Shown: positions 2,852-47,124 of the stretch, piece by piece | Numbering within the stretch: position 1 is the first letter of the stretch | How the letters are laid out: every line of letters starts with the position of its first letter | Source: Somniosus microcephalus | Taxonomy: Eukaryota | Reading direction: 5' to 3' | DNA: 64,000 nt | Assembly (NCBI GenBank): GCA_052327205.1 | Contig: CM126222.1 | Span: forward strand, 63,302,001 to 63,366,000 | The notes under the pieces: generated by a model | Told to the model about the DNA's origin: nothing | Database searches by the model: none | Seen by the model: the letters and a program-made list of their open reading frames with translations, nothing else | Position numbers and translations under genes: made by a program

Positions 2852-5418
2852 GTGAGCAAATAATTATATGTATACTTCAAAATATAGAAACTGACAATGT
2901 AGCTTCTCATATTTTTACAAAACATTGGACTTGTGGAAATGGGGGTACAATGTTTGCAGAAACTATTTGTCCATTAGCAGTTTGCGGTCTGCACAGAGCA
3001 GGATTAAACGGAGTGGACTTGAACAGTGTGTTTTATTTGGGAATTTGGAAAGAGTGGGAATTTGGAGAAGAGGGGGAAGGAGTTGTTGCTTTTTGCCTAC
3101 ACTACTTGTAGTGCTTTGTGTTACAGGTAGATATTTAATTTCAGTACCCTTAACTTAAGCTAGATCAAGTAAGTAGTCAAGAAACTACACTGTAAACTAA
3201 GTTACCTAAATACAAATTTAATTAAATTTAATTAAATAAAACAAGGTCATATAGAGATGGCAGTGCAGGTGGTGTGCCGCAACTGCAGCATGTGGGAGTT
3301 TGTGGAGAGCATTGTGATCCCGGACAACCACATTTGCAGTAAGTGCCTGCAGCTTGAGGAACTTCAGCTCAGACTCTTTGAGCTGGAGTCTGAGTTGCAG
3401 ACATTGCGGGGCATCAGGGATGGGGAGAGTTACCTGGACACTGTGATCCAGGAGGCACTCACACCCCTTGGGTTAGGTAGCGGTACAGGTCTGGTTAGTG
3501 GTCAGTGACAGGAGGGTATGACTGCAACTCAGGCAGGTAAGGGGACCCCAGATGCAGTGCTGGAGGCGCCTCAGCCTTTGCCCTTGTCCAACAGGTATGA
3601 GGTTCTTGCTGCCTGTGTGGATGAGGGAAAAGCCTGCAGGATGGATGAGCAAGCTGACCTTGGCACCATGGTGCAGGAGACCATTCAAGTGGGGGGAGTG
3701 AAAGGGAATGTAGTTGTGGTTGGGGACAGCATAGTCAGGAGAATAGATACTGTTCTCTGCAGCCACGACCGAGAGTTCCGAAGGCTGTGTTGCCTGCCCG
3801 GTGCCAGGGTTAAAGACATCTCCACGCAGCTGGAGAAGAACTTGGAGTGGGAGGGGAAGGATCCAGTTGTCGTGGTCCACGTAGGAACCAACGACATAGG
3901 TAGAACTAGGAATGAGGTTCTGCTGAGGGAGTTTGAGGAGCTAGGATCCAAATTAAAAAGCAGAACCTCAAAGATAATAATCTCTGGATTGTTAACTGAA
4001 CCACGCGCAAATTGGCTTAGGGACAAACAGATTAGAGGTTTTAAATGCGTGGCTCAAAGAGGGGTGTGGGAGGAAGGGGTTTCAGTTCATGGGGCACTGG
4101 CACCAGTACTGGGAAAGAGGGAGCTGTTCTGTTGGGATGGGATCCACTTAAACCGGGCTGGGACCAGTGTCCTGGCGAACTGAATAACTAGGGCAGTAGA
4201 CAGGGCTTTAAACTAATGAAGCGGGGGGGAGGATTCAGGAAAGAGTAAATTTAAAAGCAGCGAGAGAAATGTCTAGGCTCTAGAGCAGAGTAGAGTTTTG
4301 GGTAAAAATAAGCAGAATGGGTCAGGAATTGACAGAGAGAGTAACAAAGGTAATAGGGCATCAGTGACTAAGGTGACATCAGGGAAAAATAGAAATAAGT
4401 CAAAGCTAAAGGCACTGTATCTGAATGCGCGAAGCATTCGCAACAAAATAGATGAATTAATAGCGCAGATAGAAATTAATAGGTTTGATCTAATAGCCAT
4501 AACAGAGATGTGGTTGCAAAGTGGCCAAGGTTGGGAACTAAATATTCCAGGATACTTAACTTTTAGAAGAGATAGGCAAAATGGATAAGGGTAGCCCTTA
4601 TAATAAAGGATGGGATAAAGAGAGTAGAGAGAAAGGATCTTAGCTCCGAAAATCAAGAAGTAGAATCAGTTGGGGTGGAGCGAAGAAACAGCAAAGGGCA
4701 AAAACCATTGGTGGGAGTTGTTTATAGGCCCCCAAACAGTAGTTGTACTGTAGGGCAGAGTTTAAATCAGGAAATCAGAGTTGCATGTAACAAGGGTATT
4801 ACAGTGATCATGGGGAACGTTAATCTACATATAGACTGGGCAAACCAAATTTGCAGTAATAGTGTGGAGGACGAATTCATGCAATGTATGCAAGATAGTT
4901 TTCTAGATCAGTATGTTGATGAACCAACTAGGGAACAGACTATTTTAGATCTAGTATTGTGCAATGAGAAAGGGTTAATTAATAATCTTGTAGTAAAGGG
5001 GCCTTTAGGGAAGAATGACCATAATATAATAGAATTTTATATTGAGTTTGAAAGTGATTTAGTTAAATCCGAAACTAGGGTCTTAAATCTAAATGAAGCA
5101 AACTATCTAGGTATGAGGGGCAAGTTGGCTGCGGTAGATTGGGAAACTACATTAAAAGATATGATGGTAGACAAGCAATGGCTAGCATTTAAAGAATTAA
5201 TACATAATTTACAACAAATATACATTCCTTTAAGGCACAAAAACCCCACAGGAAAAGTGGTCCAACCGTGGCTAACAAGAGAAGGTAAAGATAGTATTTG
5301 ATCAAAGGACGAGGCTTATAATTTTGCCAAAAAGAGTAGTAAGCCTGAGGATTGGGAGGATTTTAGAATTCAGCAAACGAGGACCAAGAAATTGATAAAG
5401 AAAGGGGAACTAGAATAT

Positions 5419-5767
5419 CACAGAATCACAGAAACCCCACAGTGCAGATAGAGGCCATTCGGCCCATCGAGCCTGCACCGACACATATCCCACCCGATCC
5501 CCGTAACCCCTACACCAACACATATCCCACTCTATCTCCGTAACCCCACGTATTTAATCCCCCTAACACTAAGGGTCAATTTATCATAGCCAATCAACCT
5601 AACCCGCACATCTTTGGACTGTGGGAGGAAACCGGAGCACCCGGAGGAAACCCACGCAAACACGGGGAGAATGTGCAAACTCCACACAGACAGTCACCTG
5701 AGGCCAGATTCGAACCCGGGTCCCTGGCGCTGTGAGGCAACAGTGCTAACCACTATGCCACCGTGCT
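5419..5767 (-). mobile_element. tRNA-derived V-SINE (HE1-like) inserted in CR1 ORF2
   Basis: Minus strand has A box tggcatagtgg, B box gttcgaatc, V-domain gtggagtttgcacattctccccgtg...ggtttcctccgggtgctccggtttcctccc and a CR1-type tail. The CR1 text gaatat|gagagtaaac resumes on either side. Confidence 0.88.
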
Positions 5768-5929
5768 GAGAGTAAACTAACAAGAGACATAAAAACAGAC
5801 TGTAAAAGCTTCTATAGGTATGTAAAAAGGAAAAGATTTGCGAATGTAAATTTGGATCCCTTACAGGCTGAGACAGGAGAAGTTATAATGGGGGATAAGG
5901 AAATGGCAGAGAAATTAAACAAATACTTT

Positions 5930-6789
5930 GGGTTGGATTTTACCAGCCCTGAGGAGGCTGGTTTGGAGGTGGGACTGCTGGGAAAATCAAAAAGAATGGG
6001 AGCGGGTCCCGAACTCGCTCCCAACCCACCTCCAACCAATATTCCAGGGAGTCGGGTCCCCAGTTTGCGCAGGGACCTAGTGGCGGGAAGAAGATTATAG
6101 CTACTTAACTGCCTGTTAACAGGTAGTTAAGAGGCAGTTATGAGACTTTTTCCCATTTTGCGACTTCTGCTGCAGGCTTCCCGACGTCGGGGAACCCCAC
6201 CAGGGTAAGTGAGGTGTGCTGTGGGTCTGTTGTAATGTTTGTGTATAGATGACAGCTGCAGAAGTGGTGTGAGGGATCCGTTGGGACACTGGTGAGTATC
6301 ACATTTAAGGAAATGTTGGGAAAGTCATTTTTAATGTGTTTAGATTTTTCTGTAGGTGACAAGCTTTGAAGTGTTTGTGTGGCCTCACCTCATTGGGAAA
6401 AGTAACATTTCGCTTCTTTACCTTCACCTGCAGCTGCCATCTGTTTTATCCTAAGGAGAGCGTCATTAGAGAGCCTGGGTGCAAGGGCTCTCCTTTGTAC
6501 AGTGATTGTCAGTGTTTGACAGCATCTCAATCCTGTCAAACACTGTCAAATCATTTGTCAAAAATAGATGGTTCATGTCCCTTTCAGAAAGCCGGCAGAT
6601 GAAGCGTTGTCAACGAATGTCATCTGACACCGGCTTTCCCTTAATCGGCCAGCAAGCCCGCAGGGCGGACTTAACAAGGCCAATCAGGGGAAAATAGCGT
6701 CTGTGCGTCGGACGTCGCTGGGGGCGGGACTAGAACCCGGAATGCAGCAGTCCCGCTCTCAACTTGTCTTGGTAAGTAAAATACAGCCC
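5930..6789. mobile_element. Non-autonomous PIF/Harbinger element (860 bp) inserted in CR1 ORF2
   Basis: TIRs GGGTTGGATTTTAC / GTAAAATACAGCCC (12/14 match). It splits the CR1 sequence aaatacttt|gtgtctgtcttc. Confidence 0.8.
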
Positions 6790-8653
6790 CATGTGTCTGT
6801 CTTCATGGAAGAAGACGCAAAAAGCTTCCTGGAAATAGTGGAGAACCAAGGCTCTAGCGAGAATGAGGAACTGAAAGAAATTAGTATTAGTAAAAAAAAT
6901 AGTACTGGAGAAACTAATGGGACTGAAAACCAATAAATCCCCTGGACCTGATGACCTATATGCTAGGGTTTTGAAAGAGGTGGCTATAGAGATAGTGGAT
7001 GCATTGGTTGTCATTTTCCAAAATTCCATAGATTCTGGAATGGTTCCCGCGGATTGGAAGGTAGCAAATGTAACCCCACTATTTAAGAAAGGAGGGAGAG
7101 AGAAAATGGGGAACTACAGACCAGTTAGCTTGACATCAGTAGTAGGGAAAATGCTAAAATCCATTATTAAGGACGTGGTAACAGAACACTTAGAAAATCA
7201 TAATAGGATTGGGCAGAGTCAACACGGATCTATGAAAGGGAAATTGTGTTTGACGAATCTGTTAGAGTTTTTTGAGGTTGTAACTAGCAGAATAGATAAG
7301 GGGGGAACCAGTAGATGTGTTGTATTTGGATTTTCAGAAGGCATTCGATAAGGTGCCACACAAGAGGTTATTAAGCAAAATTAGGGCTCATGGGATTGGG
7401 GTAATATACTAACATGGATTGAGGATTGGTTAACAGACAGAAAACAGAGAGTAGGAATAAACGGGTCATTATTGGGTTGGTAGGCTGTAACTAGTAGGGT
7501 ACCGCAAGGATCAGTGCTTAGGCCTCGGCTATTCACAATCTACATCAATGATTTGGATGAGGGGACCAAATGTAATACATCCAAGTTTGCAGATGATGCA
7601 AAGCTGGGTGGGAATGTAAGTTGTGAGGAGGATGCAAGGAGGCTTCAAGGGGATATAGACAGGCTAAGTGGGTGAGCAAGAACATGGCATACGGGATATA
7701 ATGTGGAGAAATGTGAAGTTATCCACTTTGGTAGGAAAAATAGAAAAACAGAGTATTTTTTAAATGGTGAGAGATTGGGAAATGTTGGTGTTCAGAGGGA
7801 CCTGGGTGTCCTTGTACACGAATCACTGAAAGTTAACATGCAGGTACAGCAAGCAATTAGGAAAGCAAATGGTATGTTGGCCTTTATTACAAGAGGATTT
7901 GAGTATAAGAGTAAAGACGTCTTACTGCAATTATATAGGGCCCTGGTGTGACCACACCTGGAGTATTTTGTACAGTTTTGGTCTCCTTACCTAAGGAAGG
8001 ATATACTTGCCATAGAGGGAGTGTAACAAAGGTTCACCAGACTGGTTCCTGGGATGGAGGGATTGTCCTATGAGGAGAGATTGAGTCGACTAGGCCTATA
8101 TTCTCTAAAGTTTAGAAGAATGAGAGGTGATCTCATGAAACATACAAAATTCTTACAGGGCTTGACAGGGTAGATGCAGGGAGGATGTTTCCCCTGGCTG
8201 GGGAGTCTAGAAGCAGGGGTCACAGTCTCAGAATAAGGGGTTGGCCATTTAGGACTGAGATGAGGAGACATTTCTTAACTCAGGGTGGTGAATTTTTGGA
8301 ATTCTCTACCCCAGAGGACTGTGGAGGCTCAGTCGTTGAGTATATTCAAGACAGAGATTGATAGATTTTTGATTATTAAGGGAATCAAGGGATATGGGGA
8401 TAGTGCCGGAAAGTGAAGATGAGGTAGAAGATCAGCCATGATCTTATTGAATGGCGGAGCAGGCTCGAGGGGCCAAATGGCCTACTCCTGCTCCTATTTC
8501 TTAAGTTCTTATGTTCTTAGTGTTCTGAGGATTGCTTTTATTTGAAGATAGATTAAACATTATTTGCCAATTTGTGACAGTTTCGTGCTGTAGGCCCATG
8601 CTTGCTAGGAACTTTATTGAGCCTGCCCAAACTTATTTCACATCTAGCAGCTA

Positions 8654-9040
8654 GCAGTCAGAGGAGACTTGCATCCCATCAATCTGGGTTGGATTTGAAC
8701 CCAGGCCCAAGAGATAAAAGGCCAGTGTCCAATCCACTGCACCACCTAGTTCTTTCAATTAGCAAGCTCACTCAGTGAGGCCACAGGATGGCTGGTGTGG
8801 GAAATGCAAAAAAATGTCACATTGGTGCAATAGGGAAGCTCTTCTGAGGTTGGGGCTGAGGCATATTGTTGGGGCAGAGTAGAGGGAGTTTTATTTTCCA
8901 TCTGGCTGTGCAAATATCTCACTTGAGAGAGATTGGTGCTGATACTGAATACCTGAAATAGAAAGAGTTCCATTTCTCATTTCTAACGTTCTGCATCTTG
9001 ATGAACACAAGAACAAAACTTTGGAGAGAAAAAATGTGAA
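8654..9040. mobile_element. Degenerate SINE fragments (tRNA-like head on minus, 8654-8746; SINE-body-like sequence on plus, ~8760-9040)
   Basis: Minus strand reads ggtggtgcagtgg...gggttcaaatcc (A and B boxes). Body assignment is from memory of LF-SINE-like sequence and is weak. Confidence 0.4.
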
Positions 9041-9563: not shown

Positions 9564-12395
9564 CATAGAAACATAGAAGATAGGAGCAGGAGTAGGCCAT
9601 TCGGCCCTTCGAACCCGCTCCGCCATTCAATGAGATCATGGCTGATCATCCAAATTCAGTACCCTGTCCCTGCTTTCTCCCCATATCCCTTGATCCCTTT
9701 AGCCTCAAGAAATATATCCAACTCTTTCTTGAATATATTTAATGAACTGGCCTCCACCGCCCTCTGTGGCAGAGAATTCCACAGGTTCACCACTCTCTGG
9801 GTGAAGAAATTCCTCCTCATTTCAGTTCTAAATGGCTTACCCCTTATCCTTAGACTATGACCCCTGGTTCTGGACTCCCCGGCCATCCGAAACATCCTTC
9901 CTGCATCTAGTCTGTCCAGACCTGACAGAATTTTATAGGTTTCGATGAGATCCCCTCTCAATCTTCTAAACTCCAGTGAGTATAAGCCCAATCGACACAA
10001 TCTCTCCTCGTACATCATTCCTGCCATCCCAGGTATCAGCCTGGTGAATCTTCGCTGCACTCCCTCCATGGCAAGAACGTCCTTCCTCAGGTAAGGCGAC
10101 CAAAACTGCACACAATACTCAAGGTGCGGTCTCACCAAGGCCCTGTACAACTGTAGCAAGACATCCTTGTTCCTGTACTGGACCCCTCTTGCTACGAAGG
10201 CCAACATACCATTTGCCTTCTTAACCGCCTGCTGCACCTGCATGCTTACCTTCAGCGACTGGTGCACAATAACACCCAGGTCTCTTTGCACTTCCCCTTC
10301 TCCCAATCTATTGCCATTCAAATAATAATCTGCCTTCCTGTTTTTGCCACCAAAGTGGATAACCTCACATTTATCCACATTATAGTGCATTTGCCATGTT
10401 TCTGCCCAATCACCCAACCTGTCCAAATCATACTGGAGTTTCCCGACATCCTCCTCGCAGCTTACCCTCCCATCCAGCTTTGTGTCGTCTGCAAATTTGG
10501 AGATATTACATCCAATTCCCTCGTCCAGATCATTAATATATATTGTGAACAGCTGGGGTCCTAGGACCGATCCTTGCGGTACCCCACTAGTCACTGCCTG
10601 CCACTCGGAAAACGACCCGTTTATTCCAACTCTTTGCTTTCTGTCCGCCAACCAGTTCTCTATCCAAGTCAATACCTTGCCCCCAATCCCATGTGCCTTA
10701 ATTTTGCACGCTAATCTCTTATGTGGGACTTTATCGAAAGCCTTCTGAAAGTCCAAATACACCACATCCACTGGTTCTCCCTTATCTATTTTACCAATTA
10801 CATCCTCAAAAAATTCCAGTAGATTAGTCAAGCATGATTTACCTTTTGTAAATCCATGTTGACTTTGTCCGATCCTGTCACTGCTTTCCAAGTGCTCTGC
10901 TATTACATCTTTTATAATAGACTCTAGCATTTTCCCCACTACTGATGTCAGGCTTACCGGTCTATAATTCCCCGCTTTTTCTCTACCACCTTTTTTGAAT
11001 AGTGGGGTAACATTAGCTACCCTCCAATCCATGGGTACCGTTCCAGAGTCTATCGAGTTCTGGAAGATGACCAGCAATGCATCTACTATCTCTAGGGCCA
11101 TTTCCTTAAGTACCCTGGGATGTAGACCATCCGGCCCTGGGGATTTATCGGCCTTCAGTCCCATCAATTTTCCTAACACCATCTCCCTACAAATACTGAT
11201 TTCTTTCAGTTCCTCCCTTTCATCAGACCCTATGTTCCCTGGCATCTCTGGGAGGTTATTTGTGTCCTCCTTTGTGAAGACAGAACCAAAGGATGTATTT
11301 AGTTGGCCTGCCATTTCCTTGTTTCCCATTATAAATTCCCCTGATTCTGACTGCAAGGGACCTACGCTTGACTTCACCAATCTTTTTCTCTTCACATATC
11401 TATAAAAGCTTTTACAGTCAGTTTTTATGTTCCCAGCTAGCTTACTCTCATATTCTATTTTCCCTTTCTTAATTAATCCCTTTGTCCTCCTTTGTTCACT
11501 CCTAAACTGCTCCCAATCCTCAGGATTATTGCTTTTTCTAGCCAATTTATATGTCCTCTCCTTGGATCTTATGCTATCCCTAATTTCCCTTGTTAGCCAC
11601 GGTTGAGTCACCTTTTTTGTTTTATTTTTATGCCAAACTGGGATGAACAAATTCTGTAGCTCATCCATTCGGTCTTTGAATGTTTGCCATTGCCTATCCA
11701 CCGTCAACCCTTTGAGTGCCATTCCCCAATCAATCCTACCCAACTCGCTCTTCAGACCATCGTAGTTTCCTTTATTTAAATTGAGGACCCTTGTCTCTGA
11801 GTCAACTACTTCATTCTCCATCTTAATGAAGAATTCGATCATATTATGATCGCTCCGACCCAAGGGGCCTCGTACAACAAGATTGCTAATTAATCCTTTC
11901 TCGTTACATAATACCCAGTCTAAGATGGCCTGATCTCTGGTTGGTTCCTCGACATATTGGTCCAGGAAACCATCCCGTAAACACTCCAGGAATTCCTCCT
12001 CCACAGTATTGTTACTAATTTGGTTGGCCCAATCTATATGTAGATTAAAGTCACCCATGAGGACTGCTGTGCCCTTATTGCACGCTTCTTTAATTTCCCT
12101 TTTAATGCCATCCCCAACCTCTGCCTTACTGTTTGGAGGTCTATATACCACTCCCACTAATGTTTTTTTCCGCTTAGTATTTCTCAATTCTACCCATACA
12201 GATGCCACATCATCAGAGCTAATATCCTTCATTACAATTGTGTTAATCCCTTCTTTAACCAGTAATGCTACCCCACCTCCCTTTCCTTTTTGCCTATCTT
12301 TCCTGAATATCGAATACCCCTGGATGTTGAGTTCCCAGTCTTGGCCATCCTTGAGCCACGTTTCCGTAATCCCAACCAAATCATATTCGTTTGCT
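9564..12395 (-). mobile_element. 5'-truncated CR1 LINE with an uninterrupted ORF2 (9656-12403, 915 codons)
   Basis: EN motifs ITETW, MGDFN, SDHN; RT motifs PQGSVLGP, KFADD; C-terminal FFTQRVVNLWNSLP; (tttctatg)n tail. Confidence 0.96.
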
Positions 12396-12799
12396 GGAGT
12401 CACTGTGGCTCATTGTTTTGGAACATGATGCCTGCAGCTGCTTGTGCAGAGCTGTGTGATGGCATAGAACTTTTGCTGAGATTAGTTGCTGACTGACCTG
12501 TGTATGCACAGAATACTAAGCATCTGGGAGTTCCCCTAATCCCTTCCTCATAATTGTTTGTAACCATTCTCCAAGGGAATTGAAGCCAACTCCAATTTTT
12601 TCATGAATTTAATAGCAATGAGAATATTTATAATAAATGGTCCTACAGCTATATGTTACTGAGGTTGCCACTGTAATTTTCACTGGTGCTGCTTCATGTT
12701 CAGTGACAGACTGCACTGCACATAACTATTGTTCAGCCTAGTCATGCCATTGTCCAGTTACATATATTTGGAGACAATTGATTGCCCAACACAGACTGT

Positions 12800-12956
12800 G
12801 GGGATGAAATTTTCATGAGGGTTCTCCCCTACGTCCACTATAACTTTGTTGGAAAGCCGCGTAAACATCTTTTACATCGTTTTTGTGGGCTTTCTGTGGC
12901 TCTTCCGCCGAAGTTACGGTAACCGGGCGGAAAAATCCTTGCGTAAATTCAACCCC
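12800..12956. mobile_element. Harbinger-type MITE (~157 bp)
   Basis: Imperfect TIRs GGGGATGAAATTT / AAATTCAACCCC, internal partial palindrome, flanks acagac-tgt ... cat-gtattc. Confidence 0.55.
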
Positions 12957-13328
12957 CATGTATTCGAACATTTTACTTTTGAATATTGAATGTAAGATCT
13001 GCATTCCTAAATAAGTCCATTAGCACAGTCGACCTCTGCCCTGCACCTCGTGGTTCCTCATCTTGCCCCTTGCTCTGCTGTCCCATTATCCTTTTGTGTC
13101 CTCATCCAAATTGATTGGAGCATTGGCTACAGTGTCCTGTCAGGCAGCACCAATGAAGTGATAGCTGTTGACTGTTTAAACCAACGATGGCCATAATTGT
13201 TGAAGAATGAAGCCAGAGGATTGAATTGTTTAGGTTATAGCTTTAACATTTATATTCAAAGTCTTAAGGTTTCTTGTTTAGATTATCTTTATTTAACGCT
13301 TCTGTCTTCCATTATGTTTTACTTACAG

Positions 13329-14935: not shown

Positions 14936-15220
14936 CATCTAAATCTGCTTCCAGAAATTTGTTCTCCTTCACAGTCCTAATACTTGCAAATATTTTTGTA
15001 CCATTTTGGAACTTGTGGGCTGGCTGTTTTAGTTTGTGTTGTCTCTTCAGTTTTATACCTGGCTTGACATTTTGCACAGCGTTAGGGCCATTGATTTTTA
15101 CTATCTTCACAAATGACCCAGATATAAATGTTGTGGCCCACAAGTTCCAAGATGGTACAAAAATACTTGCAAGTATTAGGACTGTGAAGGAGAACAAATT
15201 TCTGGAAGCAGATTTAGATG
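14936..15220. repeat. Inverted repeat, 85-bp arms (14936-15020 and 15136-15220), 115-bp spacer
   Basis: Arms match at 83 of 85 positions by direct comparison. Confidence 0.92.
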
Positions 15221-22745: not shown

Positions 22746-25700
22746 TTGTAGTCAGCAAAACTAGTAGGGAGCAGAAACAAAGGCCAACAGTCAAGAGGGT
22801 TAAAGTGCAGAAAAATATTAAACAGGCAAAGTTGAAGGCACTTTATCTAAATGCACGTAGCATTCACAACAAGGTGGATAAATGAATGGCACTAATAGAA
22901 GTAAATGGGTATGATGGAATTGCCATTACAGAGACATGGTTGCAGGGTAACCAAAGCTGGGAACTGAATGTTCCAGGGTACTCAACATTTAGGAAGGACA
23001 GACAAAAAGGAAAAGGAGGTGGCGTAGCGCTGTTAATAAGGGATGAAATCGGTACGGCAGAGATAAAAGATCTTGGCTTGGCAGATCGTGATGTAGAACT
23101 GGAATCAGTTTGGGTGGAACTAAGAAACAGCAAAGGGCAGAAAACATTGGTGGGAGTTGTGTATAGGCCACCAAACAGTAATGGTAATGTGGGGCACAGT
23201 ATCAATCAAGAGATTAGAAGGGAATGTAACAAGGGCAATATGGTAATCATGGGAGACTTTAATCTACATATTGACTGGACAAATCAAATTACCACTAATG
23301 GTGTGGAGGACAAATTCTTGGAATGCATGCGAGATGGTTTCCTGAATCAGTATGCGGAGGAACCAACCAGGGAACAGGCTATTCTGAATCTGGTACTGTG
23401 TAATGAGAAAGGGCTAATCAATAATTTTGTGGTAAAGGGGCCTTTAGGGACAAGTGACCATAATATGATTGAATTTTACATTAAGTTTGAGAGTGATGTA
23501 ATCCAATCTGAAACTAAGGTCTTCAATCTAAACTGAGGAAACTACAAGGGTATGAAGGACAAGTTGGCCATGGTAGATTGGTAGACTACACTAAAAGGTA
23601 TGAAGGTGGACATACAATGGCTAACATTCAAGGAAATAATGCATAATTTGCAACAAACATATCTTCCTCTAGGGCATAAAAACCCAAAAGGAAAAGTGAT
23701 CCAAACATGGCTAACAAAAGAAATTAAAGCAAGTATTAAGTAAAGGAGTAAGCTTATAAAGTTGCCAGAAAAAGCGGTCAGTCTGAGGATTGGGATCTTT
23801 TTAGAAATCAGCAAAGGGGGACCAAGAAATTGATAAAGAAAGGGAAAATGGAATATGAGCACAAACTAGCAAAAAATATAAAAACAGATTATAAAAGCTT
23901 CTATAGGTATGTGAAAAGGAAAAGTCTGGCGAAGCTAAATGTAGGTCCTTCACAGTCAGAGATGGGAGAATTTATAATGGGGAATGAGGAAATGGCAGAG
24001 AAATTAAATAAATACTTTGTTTCTGTCTTCACGGAGGAAGACACAAAAAACCTCCCAGAAATACGAGAAAACCCAAGGGTATAATGAGAATGAGGAACTT
24101 AAAGAAATTATTATTAGTAAAAAAACAGTACTAGCAAAATTAATGGGACCAGAAGTCGATAAATCCCAAGGACCGGATGACCTACATCCTAGGGTTTTGA
24201 AAGAGGTGGCCATTGGAATAGTGGACGCATTGGTTGTCATCTTCCAAAATTCTATAGATTCTGGAATGGTTCCTGCAGATTGGAGGATAGCAAATGTAAC
24301 CCTGCTATTTAAGAAAGGAGGGAGAGAAAATGGGAAACTGCAGACCTGTTAGCCTCACATCAGTAGTTGGGAAAATGCTGGAATCTATTATAACGGATGC
24401 AATAATTGGGCACTTAGAAACGAATAGTAAGATTGGGCAGAGTCAACATGGATTTATTAAAGGGAAATCCTGTTTGACAAACCTATTGGAGTTCTTTGAG
24501 GATGGAACTAGTGGAGTAGACAAAGGGGAAGCGGTAGATGTGGTGTATCTGGATTTTCAGAAGGCCTTCAATAAGGTCCCACACGAGGTTAGTGAACAAA
24601 ATTAGGGCACATGGAATTGGGGGTAATATACTAGCATGGATTGAGAATTGGTTAACACAGAAAACAAAGAGTAGGGATAAACAGGTCTTTTTCAGGATGG
24701 CAGGCTGTGACTAGTGGGGTACCGCAAGGATCGGTGCTTGGGCCCCAGCTATTCACAATCTACAGGAAACTCTCGATTTACTGGCACCCAAACAACCGTA
24801 AATCTCCGTTAACCGGCAGAATTCAGGAGTAGGTTCAGTTAAGTTTTTCTTCATATTAGTGGCCGTTTCTTGATTTTTGGCTGTGTAATCGGGTGTTTCT
24901 GCACTTGTTGCTAAGCAACAGAGACGCTTGGATTTGTTGCTGTGTACGGAGCTCTCATACCTTTTAACTATAACTCTCTGTAATCCGGACTTTTTGATAA
25001 ACCGGCACCACGCCGGTCCCGTCGGTGCCGGATAAAAAAGAGTTTCCTGTATATCAATGATTTGGATGAGGAGACTAGATGTAACATTTCCAAATTTGCT
25101 GATGATACAAAGCTAGGTGGTAGTGTCAGTTGCGAAGAGGATGTGAAGAGGCTTCAAGGGGATCTCGACAGGCTCAGTGAGTGGGCGAGAACATGGCAGA
25201 TGGAATATAATGTGGATAAATGTGAAGTTATCCACTTTGGTAGAAAAAACAGAAAGGCAGAGTATTTCCTGAATGTTGAAAGATTAGGGAATGCAGATGC
25301 TCAAAGGGATCTGGGTGTCCTTGTACATGAGTCACTTGAAGTGAATGTGCAGCAAGCCATTAGAAAGGCAAATGGTACGCTGGCCTTCATTACAAGAGGA
25401 TTTGAGTACAGGAGTAAAGAAGTCTTACTCCAATTATATAGGGCCTTGGTGAGACCACACCTGGAGTACTGTGTACAATTTTGGTCTCCTTACCTAAGGA
25501 AGGATATACTTGCCATAGAGGGAGTGCAACGAAGGTTCACGATTGATTCCTGGGATGGCGGGACTGTCGTATGAGAAGAGATTGAGTAAACTAGGTCTGT
25601 ATTCTCTTGAATTCAGAAGAATGAGAGGGGATCTCATTGAAGCATACAAAATTATTACAGGGCTTGATAGGATGGATACTGGGAGAATGTTTCCCTTGGC

Positions 25701-28341: not shown

Positions 28342-28702
28342 ATGACTGAGAAGAAAGCAGCAGCTCCCAAGAAGAGCGCCAAGAAAACCACAAATAAAGG
28401 GCGGCAAGAAGTGGAGAAAGTCGAGGAAGGAGAACTGATGTAGCAGGTTCACCCTGACACCGGCATCCCCTCCAAGGCCATGAGCATCAGGAACTCCTTG
28501 GCGAACGATATTTTACGAGATCGTGGCGGGCGAGGATTCCCGCCTGGCCCCCATTACAACAAACGCACACACCATCAACCCCTGGATGACCCAGGCCGCC
28601 GTGCGCCTGCTGTTGCTGCCCGGGGGGGTGGAAAGCTGGCCAAGCACGCCGTGTCGGATGGAACAAAGGCTGTGTGTGACCAAGCACATCAGCTCCAAGT
28701 AA
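28342..28702 (+). pseudogene. Histone H2B pseudogene
   Basis: MTEKKAAAPKKSAKK..GGKKWRKSRKE, QVHPDTGIPSKAMSI, HYNKR, AAVRLL, LAKHAVSDGTKAV..SSK*; deletion and several frameshifts; no 3' stem-loop. Confidence 0.9.
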
Positions 28703-31848: not shown

Positions 31849-34800
31849 CATAAGACATACGAGCAGGAGTAGGCCATTTGGCTCTTCGAGCCGGCTCCGC
31901 CATTCACTAAGATCAATTCTAATCTTCTACCTCATCTCCACTTTCTGGCACTATCCCCATATCCCTTGATTCCCTTAATAATCAAAAATCTATCGTCCTC
32001 TATCTTGAATATACTCAACGACTGAGCCTCCACAGCCCTCTGGGGTAGAGAATTCCAAAGATTCACCACCCACTGAGTGAAGAAATTTCTCCTCATCCTT
32101 ATTCTGAGACTGACCCCTGGTTCTAGACTCCCTAGCCAGGAGAAACATCCTCCTTGCATCTACCCTGTCAAGCCCTGGAAGAATTTTGTATGTTTCAACG
32201 CGATTACCTCTCATTTTTCTAAACTCTAGAGAATATAGGCCTAGCCTACTCCATCTCTCCACATAGGACAATCCCCCCAACCCAGGAACCAGTCTGGTGA
32301 ACCTTTGTTGCACTCCCTCTATGGCAAGTATATCCTTCCTTAAGTAAGGAGACCAAAACTGTACACAATACACCAGGTGTGGTCTTACCAGGGCCCTATA
32401 TAATTGCAGTAAGACATCGTTACTCTCCTACTCAAATCCTCTTGTAATAAAGGCCAACATACCATTTGCTTTCCTAATTACTTGCTGTACCTGCATGTTA
32501 ACTTTCAGTGATTTGTGTACAAACACACCCAGTTCACTCTGAACACCAACATTTCCCAATCTCTCACCATTTAAAAAATACTCTGCTTTTATATTTTTCC
32601 TCCCAAAGTGGATAACTTCACATTTCTCCACATTATATTCCATATGCCATGTTCTTGCCCACTCACTTAGCCTGTCTATATCCCCTTGAAGCCTCCTTGC
32701 ATCCTCCTCACAACTTACATTTTCACCCAGCTTTGTATCATCAGCAAACTTGGATATATTACATTTAGTCCCCTCATCCAAATCATTGATGTAGATTGTG
32801 AATAGCTGAGGCCCAAGCACTCATTCCTTGCGGTACCCCACTAGTTACAGCCTGCCAACCCGAAAATGACCCGTTTATTCCTACTCTGTTTTCTGTTCTC
32901 AATCCATGCTAGTATATTACCCCCAATCCCATGAGCCCTAATTTTGTTTAATAACCTCTTGTGTGGCACCTTATCGAATGCCTTCTGAAAACCCGAATGC
33001 ACCACATGCACTGGTTCCCCCTTATCTATTCTGCGAGTTACAACCTCAAAAAACTCTAATAGATTGTCAAACACGATTTCCCTTTCATAAATCCATGTTG
33101 ACTCTGCCCAATCCTATTATTATTTTCTAAGTGCCCTGTTACCACGTCCTTAATAATAGATTCTAGCATTTTCCCTAATACTGATGTCAGGCTAACTGGT
33201 CTATAGTTCCCCATTTTCTCTCTCCCTCCTTTCTTAAATAGTGGGGTTATATTTGCTACCTTCCAATCTGCGGGAACCGTTCTAGAATCTATGGAATTTT
33301 GGAAAATGACAACCAATGCATCCACTATCTCTATAGCCACCTCTTTCAAAACCCTAGGATGTAGGCCATCAGGTCCAGGGGATTTATTGGCTTTCAGTCC
33401 CATTAATTTCTCCAGTACTACTTTTTTACTAATACTAATTTCTTTCAGTTCCTCATTCTAGCTAGACCCTTGGTTTTCCACTATTTCCGGGAAGTTTTTT
33501 GTATCTTTACTAATGGAGGTGGGTTGAGGACGGGCTTCCTGGTGGGCTGGTTTCGGACCCGCTGCCGGTTTCAGCCACTCCCAGTGTCCCATAGTGCCTT
33601 AATTGTTTCAATTAGTCCCATTGTGCTGCTGCCTGCTGCATTGCCTGGGAGCGGCTCTGTTGGTCTGCACTGATGAGGTCATTGCTGCACTTGTTTTTAA
33701 GGGCTCCATGTAGCCTCAGCCTCTCATTTTTCGTTACTGCTGCATCTTGAATGGGCCAAGGTAACCATGAGTGCTACGAAAGCCAAGGCTGCTCCCCGAT
33801 CACTGATGAGTGCCTGCAAACTCTTGTAGAGGAAGTAAGTGGACGTAGGTAGATTCTGTTCCCTCCCAATGGTCGGAGGAAACCTCCTCAGCTGACAAAG
33901 GCAGTCTGGCTCAGATTGCTGATGAGGTAAGCGCAAGGTCCCTATATACACGCACCTGGGTTCAGTGCCGAAAACGCTTCAATGATCTTGTGCGAACATC
34001 AAAAGTGAGTATCACATCAAACTTGCCTTCAAACTGCTTCCCTTCTCTTCTCATCACCAGCACTCTGCATTGTCAGCCTGCTCCTCCACATCCCACCTTA
34101 CCCTTACTTCCCTTGCACCCTTACCTCTCTCTCTCTCTGTACTGAATCACTTCACTATTCTACTATGCAGCCCTCACACTCGCTCTCACTGTTATGCAAT
34201 GACAACAACTAACAACTCACAGGGAGGCAGCTTCTTCTTGCCACCTCACTCCATCTTGGTCTCCCTCTAAGCTTCTAGGTTTTGGATTCTTCACACTCAC
34301 TCCATCACTCTCGCTGAAACTCCACTTGTATCCCTCCTTGCAGGAAAAGCTAGCCCACAATAAGAGGGAGAGAACAAAGACAGGAGGAGACACACCATCC
34401 CTGGCCACATTAACCAATGCTGAGGAGGCTGCTCATGACATCGTGGGAGGTGGCGAGGAGCTGGAAGTGGGGGAAGGAGAGACGGGTGCATTTGAGGATG
34501 CTAGTGACAGAATGCATTTTCATCCCTCGCATTTACAATTCACGATTGACTGCAATGGCATATGATGCTCATAGAAATTGACTTCTGATCATCTGCACAA
34601 AAGGATTTGTCTGCTACCTGAAAATCTGATGTCTAACTCATGCCTTTACTCTCTCACAGGACCATTGAGAGCCTCCCTCCCCATTGTCCAGGAGGAAGAG
34701 CCAGACGACGACTCAGAGGAACCTGGAGCCTCTGAGGAAGCAGCGTCACCAGGACTCAGTGCACCCAGCACCAGCGCAGCAACGCACACCTCGGTGGGGC

Positions 34801-37800
34801 CTTCACGACATAGAGTTGTGTTGTCATCTGGTGTATCACAGCTCACAAGTGAGCATCAGCAGATGGTGGAGACAGTGACAGCAGTGGAGAGTCCTCGTCA
34901 GAGGTGGCAGGACTCTCCTAGCTCTGCTCAGCTGCATGTAGACACTGTGCCTCTGGGGCCATCCAGAAAGAGAGCGGTGTTGGAACTCCAGGAACAAGTG
35001 CAAGAGCCTCTGACAGGGTTTGCATCCAGGGCAACTGCGAGTGTGCAGAGAATGGAGGAGTCCATTTCTAACATGATTATTTCCTTTGTGGAGGCAATGG
35101 CGCATGACCGTTCTGCCATGGAGAGGTTGGCATCTGCCACGGAGGACATAAATCGCCAGCAGAACGAAAACATGGTGACTCTTCAAAATAGATTGTCTGC
35201 AATGGTGGAGAGATGGGCATCTATTGAGGAGAGACACCAGAGCTTCATGGACGTCCTTGCCAGTACAAAGACGGGTCCTCATGATCCTCCTGATGTGCAG
35301 CAAGGTGCTGTCCAGCCACTTGCTAGCTCTGAAGTGCGGCTGACCCATGAGAGGGATGTTGGTGGCAGGCAACAAGGAAGTGTGGGCTCCTCTCCAAGCG
35401 CTCACACGAACATGCCACTGCGGCACCCTCGGTCAGAGCCCCAGATTCCACACCAAACTGAGATGGCCGTCTCAGCCCCTGCACAGCCACAGGAAGAGCA
35501 GACTGGAGGTGCACTCCTAGGCTCCCAAACCCAGTGGACGCCTGCCAAAGGCATCTAGGCAGGTGCAGCATCAAAGTGAGCAAGGTGCCTCAATATCTGC
35601 TGAAGCCACAGGGGAAGAAACACGTAGAAGCACGCGTAAGAGGAAGTTAACACACACATAGTCACAAGGGTAGTCACTTGGGTGTTTTATTGCATTGTTA
35701 ATTATCGAGTGTCCTCCTTGACGTAAGAAAACTACTAGGCACTTGGTCTAAGCGTTAAACAAAGCTTTAATCAACTGTTTTACAACATGGAGGTCTAGTT
35801 GTGTCCTTCACTAGTTCCTGTTAAGAATGTTCTGCGCAAGCTGGGCCCGTGCCCGAGTGTTTATACTCTCCCTGGACAGCGCCACCCGCAGGCCGCTCAG
35901 TATTATTTCATAAGTCTTTCTTTCATGAATGACTGATTCATGTCACTCCTTTTGTGATGTCATTAAACAAAAGTGATGGCAAGCAGTTGAGGTTCTGGTC
36001 TATGTGTTTTGGGAAATGGAAGTTGCACAGTGAGGGCTCAGGGCTAATTCCATTTATAATGATGGTGGTGACAGTGATCGGAAAGCACCGTTTATTGGAC
36101 AGATGATGTATGGTGTGTTATGAATCTTGACCTTATCTTCATCTCCATCTGCCAGCCGCCTGTGTTTGAAGTGTAAGCTCATTTGAATCTGGCATGGATG
36201 AGTGCATCCCTTGCCTAAATGGCTATCAATGTGGTCACCTGCTGCTGGATTGGCCACATCCAGCCCCGCAAGGCGTCACTTCCCGTTCTCCTACTCATCC
36301 TCCTCCTTGTCCTCTTAATTTTCCTCCAAGGAGGCTGTGTGCTGAGCCACTTGTTCATCCGGCAGCACTAAGCCGCGCTGCTCTTCCTCCGAATCTGATG
36401 ACCAGGTTGAGAGGATGTAAATGGCTCCCATCCCGTTGTTATAGATTTCAGTTGAGGCAAGAAGCTTGCCAGCACACACACAAAGTGGCCTGAAATTATT
36501 CTCAATCAGTTCAAACAGCAGATATGTGTCAGCTTGACCAGTCACAAGGTCAGTAGATTTGCAAAATCTTATCCCAAACCTCCAACAACACAGTTGTTGC
36601 ATTTGAATGCCAGCCATGTTACAGGAGCGCTTTAAATGTTCTGCACCAATAATGACTACAGATCATGTCCTCCACCAACTCGTCTCCTTGCAGCAGGACT
36701 GTTTCTGACACGACAGGAAACAGGAGCCAGAGGCACGAAAATGGGAAACCTCTATGAAAATAGAATTTTCAAGGCAGTTAACGGGCTCTTAACTGCCTTA
36801 ACTACCTGTCCCACCGGTTGGAGTTGGGTCAGTTTGGGAACAGCTGAACAGACACTTATGGAAATCGTAAGGGGGCGGGATGGAGGCGGGTTGGGTGTCT
36901 GAAGCCATTTTTTCAGATTTTAGCACCTGACACACCTCCATATCTGCCTCCTCAGGACTGTTAAAATCGAGCCCATAGTATTTGTTTAATTTCTCTGCCA
37001 TTTCCTTATCCCCATTATAATTTCTCCTGCCTCAGCCTGTAAGGGACCCACATTTAATTTCGCTAATCTTTTCCTTTTTACATACCTATAGAAGCTTTCA
37101 CAGTCTGTTTTTATGCCTCTCGCTAGTTTACTCTCATTCTATTTTCCCTTTCTTTATCAATTTCTTCGTCCTCCTTTGCTGAATTCTAAAATCCTCCCAA
37201 TCCTCAGGCTTACTACTCTTTTTGGCAGCATTATAAGCCTCTTCCTTTGATCTAATACTATCTAACTTCTCTTGTTAGCCACGGTTAGACCACTTTTCCT
37301 GTGGGGTTTTTGTGCCTTAAAGGAATGTATATTTGTTGTAAATTATGTATTAATTCTTTAAATGCTAGCCATTGCTCATCCACTGTCATACCTTTTAATG
37401 TAGTTTCCCAATTTACCTTAGCCAACTTGCCCTTCATACCTACATAGTTTGCTTTGTTTAGATTTAAGACCCTAGTTTCGGATTTAACTAAGAATTTTAT
37501 ATCGAGTCTGAAAGTGACTATCATATTATGGCCACTCTTCCCTAAAGGCCACTTTACTACAAGGTTATTAATTAACCCTTTCTCGTTGTACAATACTAGA
37601 TCTAAAACAGCCTGTGTTGGTTCATCAACATACTGATCCAGAAAACTATCTTGCATACATTCCATGAATTCGTCCTCCACATTATCACTGCAAATTTGGT
37701 TTGCCCAGTCTATATGTAGATTAAAGTCCCCCATAATTACTATGTTACCCTTGTTACATGCGCCTCTAATTTCCTGATTTATACTCTGCCCTACATTACA

Positions 37801-38627
37801 ACTACTGTTTGGGGGCCTATAAACAAATCCCACCAATGTTTTCTGCCCCTTGCTGTTTCTTAGCTCCACCCAAACTGATTCTACTTCTTGATTTTCGGAG
37901 CTAAGATCCTTTCTCTCTACTGTCTTTATCCCATCCTTTATTATCAGGGCTACCCTTATCCATTTTGCCTATCTATTCTAAAAGTTATGTATCCTGGAAT
38001 AGTTAGTTCCCAACCTTGGCCACTTTGCAACCACGTCTCCGTTATGGCTATTAGATCAAGCCTGTTAATTTCTATCTGCGCTATTAATTCATCTATTTTG
38101 TTGCGAATGCTTCGCGCATTCAGATATAGTGCCTTTAGCTTTGACTTATTTCTCTTTTTCCCTGATGTCACCATAGTCACTGATGCCTTATTACCTTTGT
38201 TACTCTCTCTGTCCCTTTCTAACCCACTCTGCTTATTTTTATCCAAAACTCTGCTCTAGAGCCTAGACATTTCTCTCGCTGTTTTTAAATTTACTCTTTC
38301 CAGAATCCTCCCACCCCCGCCCCCCCTTCATTAGTTTAAAGCTCTGTCTACTGCCTTAGTTATTTGGTTCGCCTGGACACTGGTCCCAGCCAGTGGAGCC
38401 CGTCCCAACGGAACAGCTCCCTCTTTCCCAGTACTGGTGCCAGTGCCCCATGCACCGAAACCCCTTCCTCCCACACCACTCTTGGAGCCATGCATTTAAA
38501 CCTCTAATCTGTTTGTCCCTATGCCAATTTGTGCATGGTTTTGCTTTGAGGTTCTGCTTTTTAATTTGGATCCTAGCTCCTCAAACTCCCTCAGCAGAAC
38601 CTCATTCCTAGTTCTACCTATGTCGTT
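31849..38627 (-). mobile_element. CR1 LINE (3' part of ORF1 plus disrupted ORF2), same subfamily as 2977-8519, interrupted by a Harbinger at ~33506-36974
   Basis: Shares SKLKALYLNARSIRNKIDELIAQIEINR and other peptides with the first copy; RT motifs and 3' tail at 31849. Confidence 0.92.
33506..36974 (+). mobile_element. Harbinger element A: three-exon Myb/SANT gene on + (~33767-34004, 34344-~34503, 34660-~35661) and a convergent transposase remnant on - (~36180-36430)
   Basis: Right TIR TTAAAATCGAGCCC; left TIR largely deleted. Myb peptide APR..DECLQTLVEEV...WVQCRKRFNDLVRTSK|gtgagt; exon 2 EKLAHNKRERTKTGG; basic C-terminus RSTRKRK. Frameshifts present. Confidence 0.85.
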
Positions 38628-38715
38628 TTTTCCTTCCCTATCTTTTCTGAACACCATGTATCCTTGAATATTAAGTGCCCAGTCCTCACTGTTTTTAAGC
38701 CACGTTTCCGTTCTT

Positions 38716-39643: not shown

Positions 39644-42600
39644 AACATAACATAAGGACATAAGAAGTAGGAGCAGGAGTCGGCCATATCGCCCCTCGGG
39701 CCTGCTCCGCCATTCAATAGGATCATGGCTGATCCGAACCTAGACTCACGTCCACTTCCCTGCCCGCTCCCCGTAACCCCTAATTCCCTTATCAGCTAGG
39801 AAACTGTCTATCTCCGTTTTAAATTTATTTAATGTCGCAGCTTCCACAGCTCTCTGAGGTAGCAAATTCCATAGATTTACTACCCTCTGAGTGAAGAAGT
39901 TTCTCCTCATCTTAGTTTTGAAAGGGCAGCCCCTTATTCTAAGATTATGCCCCCTAGTTCTAGTCTCACCCATCAGTGGAAACATCCTCACCGCATCCAC
40001 CCGATCAAGCCCCCTCACAATCTTATATGTTTCGATAAGATCGCCTCTCATTCTTCTGAATTCCAATGAGTAGAGGCCCAACCTACTCAACCTTTCCTCA
40101 TAAGTCAACCCCCTCATCTCCGGAATCAACCGAGTGAACCTTCTCTGAACTGCCTCGAGAGCAAGTACAGGAAACTTTGGTTTATCCGGAGGTTATATGT
40201 CCGGAATACTCGATCTAACGGCAAAAATCAGGAGCCGTTTTCTATAAGTTTTTTTAGTTCTCGTTGCTTTTTTTTCCCCAGTCAGGCACTGCAAGGTCTG
40301 TAGCTATAGCAACAGCTTCAGCTAGAGACGCTTGCAGCTGCAGCTGACTGTTTTGAAGCTGTTGCTAAGCAACAGGGTTTGTTGATTCACACGGAGCTTT
40401 TCAGTTCCGTATCTCTCAACATTAACGCTGGTATGTCCGGCACTTTTGATGGTACGGCACCAGCTCGGTCCCGTCAGTGCCGGATATCAGAAAGTTTCCT
40501 GTATATCTTTTCTTAAATATGGAAACCAAAACTGTACGCAGTATTCCAGGTGTGGTCTCACCAGTAATCTGTATAACTGAAGCAAGACTTCCCTGCTTTT
40601 ATACTCCAACCTCCTTGCAATAAAAGCCAAGATTCCATTGGCCTTCTTGATCACCTGCTGTACCTGCATACTAACCTTCTGTGTTTCATGCACCAGGACC
40701 CCCAGATCCCTTTGTACTGTAGCACTTTGCAGTTTCTCTCCATTTAGATAATAACTTGCTCTTTGATTTTTTCTGCCAAAGTACATAACCTCACACTTTC
40801 CAACATTATATTCCATCTGCCAAATTTCTGCCCACTCACTTAGCCTGTCTATGTCCTTTTGCAGGTTTTTTATGTCCTCCTCACTCACTGCTTTCCCTCC
40901 CATCTTTGTATCGTCGTCAAACTTGGATACGTTGCACTCGGTCCCTGCCTCCAAATCGTTAATATAGATTGTAAAGAGTTGGGGTCCCAGCACTGACCCC
41001 TGCAGAACACCACTAGTCACTGATTGCCAACCCGAGAATGAACCATTTATCCCAACTCTCTGTTTTCTGTTAGATAGCCAATCTTCCACCCATGCCAGTA
41101 TATTACCCCCAATCCCGTGATTTTTTATCTTGTGCAGTAATCTTTTGTGTGGCACCTTGTCAAATGCCTTTTGGAAGTCCAAATACACCACATCCACTGG
41201 TTCCCCTTTATCCACCCTGTTTGTTACGTCCTCAAAGAATTCGAGCAAATTTGTCGGACATGACTTCCCCTTCATAAAACCATGCTGACTCTGTCCGATT
41301 AAATTATGCTTATCCAAATGTCCTGTTACTGCTTCCTTAATAATGGACTCCAACATTTTACCAACCACAGATGTTAGGCTAACTGGTCTATAGTTTCCAG
41401 CCTTTTGTCTACTTCCCTTTATAAATAAGGGCATTACATTAGCAGTTTTCCAATCTGCTGAGACCTTTCCTGAATCCAGGGAGTTTTGGAAAATTACCAC
41501 TAATGCATCCACAATCCCTACCGCTACTTCTCTCAAGACCCTAGGATGTAAGCCATCAGGTCCAGGGGATTTATCTGCCTTTAGTCCCATTATCTTACCG
41601 AGTACCATCTCCTTAGTGATTTTAATCGTGTTTAGCTCCTCCCCCCCCCCCCCCATAGCCCCCTGTTTGTCCAGTGTTGGGATATTTTTAGTGTCCTCTA
41701 CTGTAAAGACTGATACAAAATATTTGTTCAGCGTTTTTGCCATCTCCATGTTCCCCACCACTAATTTCCCGGTCTCGTCCTCTAAGGGACCAACATTCAC
41801 TTTAGCCACCCTTTTTCTTTTAATATAACTGTAGAAACTCTTGCTATCTGTTTTTATATTTTTTGCTAGTTTACTTTCATAATCTATCTTCCCTTTCTTA
41901 ATTAATCTTTTAGTTATTTTTTGCTGGCTTTTAAATGCTTCCCAATCTTCTATCCTCCCACTAGATATGGCTACTTTATATGCTCTTGTTTTCAGTCGGA
42001 TACTATCCTTTATTACTTTACTTAGCCACGGATGGCTGTCTTTTCTTTTACGCCCCTTTTTCCTCAGTGGAATATATTTATCTTGAAAGTTGCAAAATAT
42101 CTCCTTGAATGTACACCACTGCTCATGTACCATCTTACACTTTAATCTATTTTCCCAGTCCACTTTAGTCAACTCTGCTCTCATACCTTCATAGTCTCCT
42201 TTATTTAAGCTTAGTACGCTGGTTTGAGATCCAACTCTCTCACCCTCCAACTGAATTTGGAATTCAACCATGTTATGGTCACTCATTCCAAGGGGATCCT
42301 TTAATAGGACATTTTTTAATTAATCCTGTCTCATTACACAGGACCAGATCTAAGATTGCCTGCCCCCTGGTTGGTTCAGTAACATACTGCTCAAGGAACC
42401 CGTCCCTAATGCACTCTATGAACTTTTCCTCAAGGCTGCCCTGCCCAATTTGATTTGTCCAGTCAGTATGAAAGTTAAAATCCCCCATGATTATAGCTGT
42501 TCCCTTATTACAAGCCCCAACTATTTCCTGATTTATACTCCGACCAACAGAGTTGCAGCTGTTAGGAGGCCTATAGACTATGCCCGCTAGTGACTTTTTC

Positions 42601-45630: not shown

Positions 45631-45891
45631 TGCATCTTTCCAAATGAAAATATAGGGAGAGAAACTTATACAGTAATGGGAAAAACATTGACGTAATAGT
45701 GTGACAAAAACGTGATAACAGCAACTAAGGTATTGTGTACAGGAAGTCTACAGACGTAATGCAGATATAAAATTTATAATACATTATAAATAGCTTTATT
45801 TTTTCTCTTTCCATTTATGTAGGAAAATAAAAACTACTCCTGACTTCAAGAAAACTTTTTTTGATTTGGTAAAACTGCTTGAAGGTGAACA

Positions 45892-46257
45892 ATGGAACAA
45901 GAGGAAATTCCCAATGAGCACGAGGATGACCCACGAATGGCTTTTTTGCAGAGCTTAACTGTGATGTATTTCAGTATAAAACAAGACAAATGGGCTAAAT
46001 TTTCTGCATCAGAAGAAAACAAACGCCTGGTGATGGACTTCTTTAATACAGAAGACACAATGATTCTGGTAATCTATATCAACAATGCAGGACAATTAGC
46101 TGCAAATTTGGGATTTCCTGCCTTAATTAAAACAAAGGGAATTTACTTTGTGAAAAAGAAAATGGTGCGCATCACTAATGACAATATTAAAGAGGCACTA
46201 TTAATTGGCGATGTTAGCAAATCACCGGTTGAACAATTATTAGCAGTGGTTGAAGAG
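45892..46257 (+). CDS. DNAH17: Dynein axonemal heavy chain 17, first coding exon (122 codons; exon probably starts at 45823)
   Basis: Peptide DPRMAFL..DKWAKF..EEN..LGFP..IKTKGIYFVK..LLIGDVSKSPVEQLLAVVEE resembles the human DNAH17 N-terminus (..DKWSKL..LGFPQSLKSKGVYFIK..LLYGDISPTPVDQLIAVVEE). Acceptor ttatgtag at 45822, donor gtgagt at 46258. DNAH17 follows CYTH1 in human. No later exon found in the window. Confidence 0.9.
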
Positions 46258-47124
46258 GTGAGTGAGAGGAAAAAATAATCAGTTCATAACGTAAGAGAAA
46301 TTAAAAATGAGAAAATGGCATTCAAATAATTGAAGTTTATCCTACAACAAGTATCCTGTGCCATCATAGAATCCAACTATATTTTGAAGAACTGCAATGT
46401 TTTTGGCTGTATTATCCTGTGCAGCAAACTATTTATTATATTTATTGGACTTTGAGTAATATTTTAAAGTTATCTTCTAATTTCCATTCATATTTTCTGG
46501 CCCTACTTTGTAGGGTAGCTTTAAAGTAATACTCTGGGTTTACTTTATCTAGCTTTATATTATAATATCTTATACATAATGAACTAATCTGGTTAGACAT
46601 TTCTAATGAAAAAAAAATCAAGGTACTCTAGGGGAATGTTACAGACAACCAAGTCAGCATAAGAAGGAAAAACAGCATGCTCTATGAAGAGATAGGAGGG
46701 GTATGTGAGAAGTGAAACGTTATTTTGATGGATCACTTCAATTAACCAAATGTAAATTGTGAAAACCCAAGTGGTTTAGTATCAGAGTTGGTAAATGTAA
46801 TGTATGACTGCTTTGTGACCAAGTATATCAAGGAAGCCACAAGAAGCATGGTATTCATAAATGACCCAGAAAATGTACAGAAAAACTGGAATTTGTGGCA
46901 CCTTCGGGGACAGTGACCACAGAATTGTTCAACATGATCTGGGATTCATAATACCAACAATCTAGAGCTAGGCATATAACTTTAAAAGGGCTAACTTCAA
47001 AAAAATGGGGACCAACTTAAGTAGATTAATTGAGGAAAGTTGTTCAGCCACAGTTGAGAAGGAGACAAGTAGAACATCTTTAAAGGCAAAATATTGAGCA
47101 TGCAGGATAAATACTGGTGAGCTG

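Follow-up and report, generated by a model that had tools for sequence, protein, structure and literature searches.

Why do two different Harbinger-type DNA transposons occupy the same nucleotide in two separate copies of a LINE? The question arises from a 64,000-nt stretch of the Somniosus microcephalus genome (hereafter the window, with positions counted from its first letter), in which a sequence-only reading had noticed two CR1 copies broken at one and the same base of ORF2, and had proposed that this base serves as a fixed landing pad. We consider it likely that the base is instead a recurrent hot spot, produced by the known extended target preference of Harbinger elements acting on a palindrome which a conserved CR1 protein motif preserves, and that it is not a dedicated landing pad.

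Two Harbinger Inserts at One Base of CR1 ORF2

Self-BLAST of the window, which is rich in repeats, revealed five long CR1-type copies, two of which host the inserts named A and B here:

3191-8516, plus strand: host CR1a with degraded ORF2 (self-BLAST; weak Pfam RVT_1 match)
5921-5929, plus strand: left target arm (6 nt) and left 3-bp target copy TTT, in CR1 codons K-Y-F
5930-6789, plus strand: insert A, an 860-bp Harbinger-type MITE of a high-copy family
6790-6798, plus strand: right 3-bp target copy CAT (two changes relative to the left one) and right target arm
31849-38634, minus strand: host CR1b, 5'-truncated, 92-93.5% identical to CR1a
33508-36974, minus strand: insert B, a 3.47-kb non-autonomous Harbinger derivative bearing a Myb gene
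33767-35555 (approximate limits), plus strand: broken Myb/SANT-type gene inside insert B, 66-80% like the Mybs of the elements at ~52-57 kb and ~62-64 kb

The host LINEs are presumably CR1 elements, to judge from their 3' tail and motifs. They are the close relatives they had been described as, and both are hit at the same base, with the inserts in the same orientation relative to their own CR1: A begins at 5930, after the L-N-K-Y-F codons of CR1a, and B at 36974 on the minus strand, after the triplet TAT. The termini of A are imperfect inverted repeats of ~14 nt (GGG...CCC), flanked by TTT on the left and CAT on the right, which mismatch at two of three bases (P ~0.014). The size of the target duplication is fixed at 3 bp by the sequencing runs considered below, in all four of which the commonest joint listed, that of the empty site, skips 863 nt (860 + 3). 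Insert B has an intact left end and a deleted right one, where 33 nt are gone, corresponding to ~9 nt of inverted repeat, the duplication and ~21 nt of CR1.

The inserts had been said to differ in size and content. Their lengths (860 bp versus 3.47 kb) and the absence of a Myb/SANT gene from A bear this out, but the Myb gene of B is broken: its 60-aa piece matches Pfam Myb_DNA-bind_5 (E 8e-4, 19.7 bits) below the curated cut-off of 21.7, and it resembles another Myb of the window in tblastn (E 2e-7). A search with 15 relatives of the window's Harbinger transposase, named from a sawshark and an electric ray, detected no transposase in A or B, and both are thus non-autonomous.

CR1a is interrupted twice, by insert A and by a SINE-like insert (~5417-5766), and contains many stops and frameshifts outside insert A. 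The insertions do interrupt ORF2, as had been claimed, but with CR1a already degraded and CR1b 5'-truncated, a disabling effect on CR1 activity, and hence a restraint of CR1 by insertion, is unsupported. The SINE-like insert contains a 37-bp tandem unit and is missing from CR1b.

In three further CR1 copies the homologous site is empty:

24010-24024, plus strand: empty site in a CR1 of another subfamily (target match 9/12)
11282-11296, minus strand: empty site in a CR1 whose ORF2 is open over 917 codons (target match 6/12)
41711-41725, minus strand: empty site (target match 7/12)

The vacancy of these sites had been noted and is confirmed; as the three copies are 67-86% identical to the hosts and come from other subfamilies, they are however unsuitable as matched controls. 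The copy with the open frame (9656-12409, minus strand) shows Exo_endo_phos and RVT_1 matches in Pfam, is 70-79% identical to CR1a and CR1b, and represents a young subfamily; its homologous site is a poor target for Harbingers.

One Insertion Event or Two

Such an arrangement could stem from one old insertion that was copied, either as cargo of a trans-retrotransposed CR1 or by local duplication, the inserts having later diverged or been swapped. Several observations are compatible with this scenario: the hosts belong to one CR1 subfamily, the inserts are co-oriented, a single TAT variant could have given rise to the triplets TTT/CAT and TAT, and the first 42 nt of the inserts, where our recount agrees with the 35 matches reported, exceed the flanks only slightly in divergence (P 0.025). 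Yet the longer comparisons speak against it. The left ends match at 57 of 80 ungapped positions (71%) and at 67% over ~240 aligned columns, the right ends at 60% over the last 120, and blastn aligned nothing of note between the interiors. "Diverge strongly", the earlier wording for everything past the first 42 nt, thus holds for the interiors but was overstated for the ends, which are still alignable and mark A and B as related families.

Identity lies at 60-77% in these insert ends, where transversions outnumber transitions, and at 91.9-93.5% of aligned columns in the CR1 flanks, where transitions predominate. If the inserts had the mismatch rate of the flanks, the 23 differences in 80 nt would have a P of 3e-9. 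No DNA is shared within ~1 kb beyond each CR1 end, the SINE-like insert occurs in CR1a only, and CR1b has a 5' truncation of its own. With inserts diverged, flanks similar and surroundings unshared, neither local duplication nor CR1 cargo fits. We accordingly reject for these two copies the cargo alternative that the sequence-only reading had offered, the divergence of the inserts being far above that of the flanks, as well as a local duplication with equal divergence in flank and insert, and regard descent from a single insertion as very unlikely. A and B are, as judged from these alignments, two independent insertions by related families.

A Near-Palindromic Target, Probably Kept by a Conserved Motif

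The target of zebrafish Harbinger3_DR is described in passages of PMC3016246 as a 15-bp palindrome, and an extended target preference of 9-15 bp is presented in parts of PMC2836001 as a trait of the superfamily. We scored sites by their two 6-nt arms against the symmetrised zebrafish Harbinger3_DR consensus (maximum 12). The site of A reaches 10/12 and the surviving arm of B 5/6; of the 63,986 unoccupied window positions, nine score at least 10. Three Harbinger-like inserts with paired ends are found elsewhere in the window:

12800-12956, unstranded: comparison MITE of 157 bp, Harbinger-like, outside the CR1 site (target 9/12, triplets TGT/CAT)
59727-60306, unstranded: comparison MITE of 580 bp, GC-rich, Harbinger-like, in the 3' fragment of a different LINE (target 11/12, the best-scoring in the window; triplets AAT/TAT)
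52548-55826, unstranded: comparison Harbinger of 3.28 kb with a deleted DDE_Tnp_4 transposase and a Myb gene (target 8/12, exact CAG/CAG duplication)

Of the six arms of these inserts, five reach 4/6 or more, where the background is 6.6% (P 7e-6), and AC terminates all nine arms known from the paired elements and B. The six unpaired Harbinger-like ends score 1-2/6 each; four of them are of GGCC or GGGCC type and may belong to other families. When they are included, a score of at least 4/6 is reached by 5 of the 12 ends outside the CR1 site (background 6.6%, P 7e-4); both P values are rough, the element ends having been selected by an ad hoc pattern. An A-N-N-Y flank is present at 7 of these 12 ends. 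A match to the end pattern at 8686 was discarded as it does not look like an element end.

The 52548-55826 element is nested in the Myb gene of another Harbinger, and the homologous site in insert B is empty; hot spots may therefore exist within Harbinger genes as well. At the 157-bp MITE, TGT (12797-12799) and CAT (12957-12959) are both derivable from CGT, and CpG decay on opposite strands would explain the mismatched duplication at 12797-12959.

Abundant Harbingers and abundant CR1 elements might also have met twice at one base by coincidence, with a weak local preference. The many Harbinger-like ends and the five long CR1 copies of the window give this idea some room, as does the loose motif A-N-N-Y-nnn-R-N-N-T, which occurs 49-64 times per CR1 copy. 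The occupied site is nevertheless among the rarest and best-scoring motif matches, and foreign continuations at the same base recur in the runs of other organisms, which makes coincidence very improbable.

A second strong site lies in the reverse-transcriptase region of CR1 (at 7744 in the window). None of three copies is occupied there, despite scores of 10, 10 and 9, so that the arms alone are insufficient and the central triplet or a wider context must matter. It is because this equally scoring site goes unused in the same CR1s that we still reckon with dedicated targeting, in which a clade would have adopted the CR1 site as its multicopy safe harbour, like Dada, and would read context beyond the 15-bp motif. 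Both copies of the A/B clade with a full or left CR1 junction are indeed found at this base, oriented alike. Set against this, three inserts elsewhere in the window use the motif, and a related end (at 61792) as well as related Myb genes are located outside the CR1 site. What survives here of the landing-pad proposal is an independent, sequence-directed reuse of a CR1 base; a family with this site as its fixed landing pad is unsupported, the motif being in use at those three other inserts.

The break point falls in the conserved protein motif N-x-[YF]-F-x-S-V-F-T. Among the 140 usable of 143 CR1-like proteins, N is kept in 132, F in 132, S in 105, V in 115, the second F in 117 and T in 118. 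None of the 143, retrieved by phmmer with the junction peptide, runs on into the insert, and a word-indexed search with this peptide gave no candidate spanning the junction. Neither viral nor metagenome contigs yielded a match to the A/B end in exact-pattern scans, and similar scans gave no hit to the CR1 site among viral contigs and prokaryote genomes; a single metagenome match to the CR1 site reads as an unrelated bacterial-type gene. These nulls reflect the contents of the viral, metagenome, prokaryote and protein collections and are silent on site occupancy.

Returning to the hot spot, we propose that A and B, members of two related PIF/Harbinger (PHIS) families, inserted independently, by ordinary cut-and-paste, into two copies of one CR1 subfamily. 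An autonomous partner would supply the DDE transposase and the Myb protein, as passages of PMC2836001 describe as established for the superfamily. The resulting complex would select a near-palindrome made of an A-rich 6-nt arm ending in AC, an AT-rich triplet and a mirror arm, the 3-bp centre of which would be duplicated on insertion; recognition of the motif by the transposase or the Myb protein is suggested by analogy with published work on other elements. The ORF2 codons K-Y-F-V-S, between endonuclease and reverse transcriptase, spell such a palindrome. As the motif around them is strongly conserved, each new full-length or long CR1 copy should regenerate a good target, the site thus being kept by protein constraint. 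CR1-group elements account for 22-34% of elasmobranch genomes according to passages of PMC13343379, and with this abundance in shark and ray genomes the base would become a recurrent hot spot, presumably enriched in insertions genome-wide. The same Harbinger families also insert at matching sites outside CR1.

Contigs at the Junction in Sequencing Runs of Four Organisms

In four of 20 runs, from four organisms, all assembled contigs were mapped to positions 5760-6960 at 80% likeness; the material examined comprises the 24 rows listed of 2981, the 15 joints listed of 218 and the 32 pieces listed of 77,091. Numbers of contigs are not copy numbers, and depth values were not used as such. Insert A is covered end to end (30/30 bins) in all four runs, which identifies its family as high-copy. 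The 863-nt joint of the empty site is represented by 10, 10, 4 and 8 contigs in the four runs (among the 15 joints listed of 218). Contigs continuing as empty CR1 after 5930 number 143 in X15, 150 in X18, and 83 and 24 in the other two. Contigs that leave CR1 after 5931 are fewer, with 44 in X15 versus 143 empty ones and 54 in X18 versus 150, among the matches listed; in X1 and X7, no row leaving CR1 after 5931 is present among the 24 listed of 2981.

The consensuses of these loose ends are mixtures, with an agreement of 0.52 in X15 and 0.53 in X18. That of X15, GATTTTAC, stands in inverted-repeat register and agrees, counted by hand, with the left end of A at 18/30 positions, with its reversed right end at 18/30 and with the empty CR1 at 11 kb at 13/30. 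Judging from these matches, we consider it probable that most of the 44 contigs in X15 have a different Harbinger end, or one in reverse, at this CR1 base. The X18 consensus starts like empty CR1 and is mixture-like (17/30 with empty CR1, 18/30 with the insert end).

One X18 contig bridges the junction (5794-5973, 31 differences in 180, 83% identity; one of the 32 pieces listed of 77,091) and could be an orthologue of insertion A itself. The threshold for bridging was 31 letters; record 10 of X15, reaching 12 nt into the insert, and record 3 of X1, with 26 nt of CR1, lie below it and were left uncounted. In another X18 contig (1008 nt), family A stops exactly at 6789 and is followed by unrelated DNA, which places the family outside the CR1 site as well; a further family-A contig starts at 5926 after six unaligned letters.

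The 44 and 54 contigs leaving CR1 at this base in two runs, among the matches listed, are what dedicated targeting would lead one to expect, but the two family-A contigs with other surroundings are not, and we judge it unlikely. The contig that carries family A elsewhere and the surplus of empty sites in both runs speak against a landing pad in the strict sense. The run data indicate recurrence at this base, from which rates are not derivable.

Classification and Comparison With Known Systems

As expected of PHIS elements, A has short inverted repeats and a 3-bp duplication, of which B retains the left end only. An extended target preference is visible at the site of A (10/12) and at the three other paired inserts (8-11/12), but not at the six unpaired ends. 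A DDE_Tnp_4 domain is lacking in A and B and is represented by the deleted copy in the 52548-55826 element. On the host side, the open paralogue at ~9656-12409 encodes in its ORF2 the apurinic endonuclease and reverse transcriptase of a CR1. The NuwaI group of PHIS is characterized, in passages of PMC4482050, by GGG-starting inverted repeats of 12-61 bp, a Myb/SANT second gene, animal hosts and a CWG duplication. The repeats of A and B likewise start with GGG and fall within this length range, a probable Myb/SANT gene and an animal host are found here too, and the nested 52548-55826 element has an exact CAG duplication. A (TTT/CAT) and B (TAT) differ in having no CWG duplication, which only the nested element displays, and in having no transposase left for placement in a tree. 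Nor do the triplets TTT, CAT and TAT correspond to the TWA duplication given for strict PIF/Harbinger in the same passages. A and B are hence best described as non-autonomous members of the PHIS superfamily that lie outside the triplet definitions of NuwaI and strict PIF/Harbinger.

The mechanism itself is already published for zebrafish Harbinger3_DR. With Harbinger3_DR and Harbinger3N_DR the elements share a near-palindromic 15-bp target around a 3-bp duplication, the arms matching at 10/12 at the CR1 site, as well as a probable Myb partner gene and MITE derivatives (passages of PMC3016246 and PMC2836001). The centre, in contrast, is CWG there and TTT, CAT or TAT here, and the passages on Harbinger3_DR in these two papers mention no reuse of a LINE coding motif. 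Dada and Pokey, as portrayed in passages of PMC3706591, likewise are DNA transposons with one position of insertion in a conserved sequence that is present in many copies. They belong to another superfamily, however, make 6-7 bp duplications and target host RNA genes, Dada those for snRNA and tRNA. Family A also occurs at other sites, and a strict specificity like that of Dada is unsupported; Pokey, which prefers 28S rDNA and inserts elsewhere too, is the closer parallel. Stowaway MITEs in a Triticeae beta-amylase intron provide another case of divergent DNA transposons independently inserted at one base, in that case an orthologous single-gene site in plants and another MITE family, as opposed to paralogous LINE copies here (PMC1925063). 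No report of a Harbinger hot spot in CR1 ORF2 was found in the literature searched, which lay outside most subscription journals and the Repbase entries, and the passages searched in PMC13343379 do not mention Harbinger.

A short target preference can thus take on the appearance of site-specificity when coding constraint in an abundant LINE regenerates the target, and such hot spots are a plausible stepping stone to strict targeting as in Dada or R2. Same-site insertions at hot spots mimic shared ancestry or cargo, and can mislead repeat consensus building and the use of presence/absence markers in shark and ray genomes. It seems improbable that a cartilaginous-fish Harbinger clade has narrowed its general palindromic preference until it is effectively specialised on this one CR1 ORF2 motif, with a large share of its copies there in several species. 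If it were, a DNA transposon would parasitise and cap long LINEs, while the LINE would multiply the target and could not mutate away from it without damage to its protein.

Other Features of the Window

No tandem repeat accounting for the site and no Rfam match were found in the whole window. Two related MITEs (24764-25050 and 40167-40501), which have TA duplications and inverted ends beginning with CAGG and which we take to be Tc1/mariner-like, sit at different positions of two CR1 copies, in contrast to the same-site Harbingers. A frame of 129 codons at 45889-46278 (plus strand) resembles a host exon, with DUF7197 (E 0.029) as its only Pfam match; we assume it to be the N-terminus of an axonemal dynein heavy chain, and the repeats of the window may lie in introns of this putative gene. 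The translation of a degraded stretch at ~28400-28560, beside an RTE-like LINE end, looks like what is presumably a histone H2B remnant. Finally, an 85-bp inverted repeat with 98% complementarity and a 115-nt spacer (14936-15220) is contained in a LINE-like fragment.
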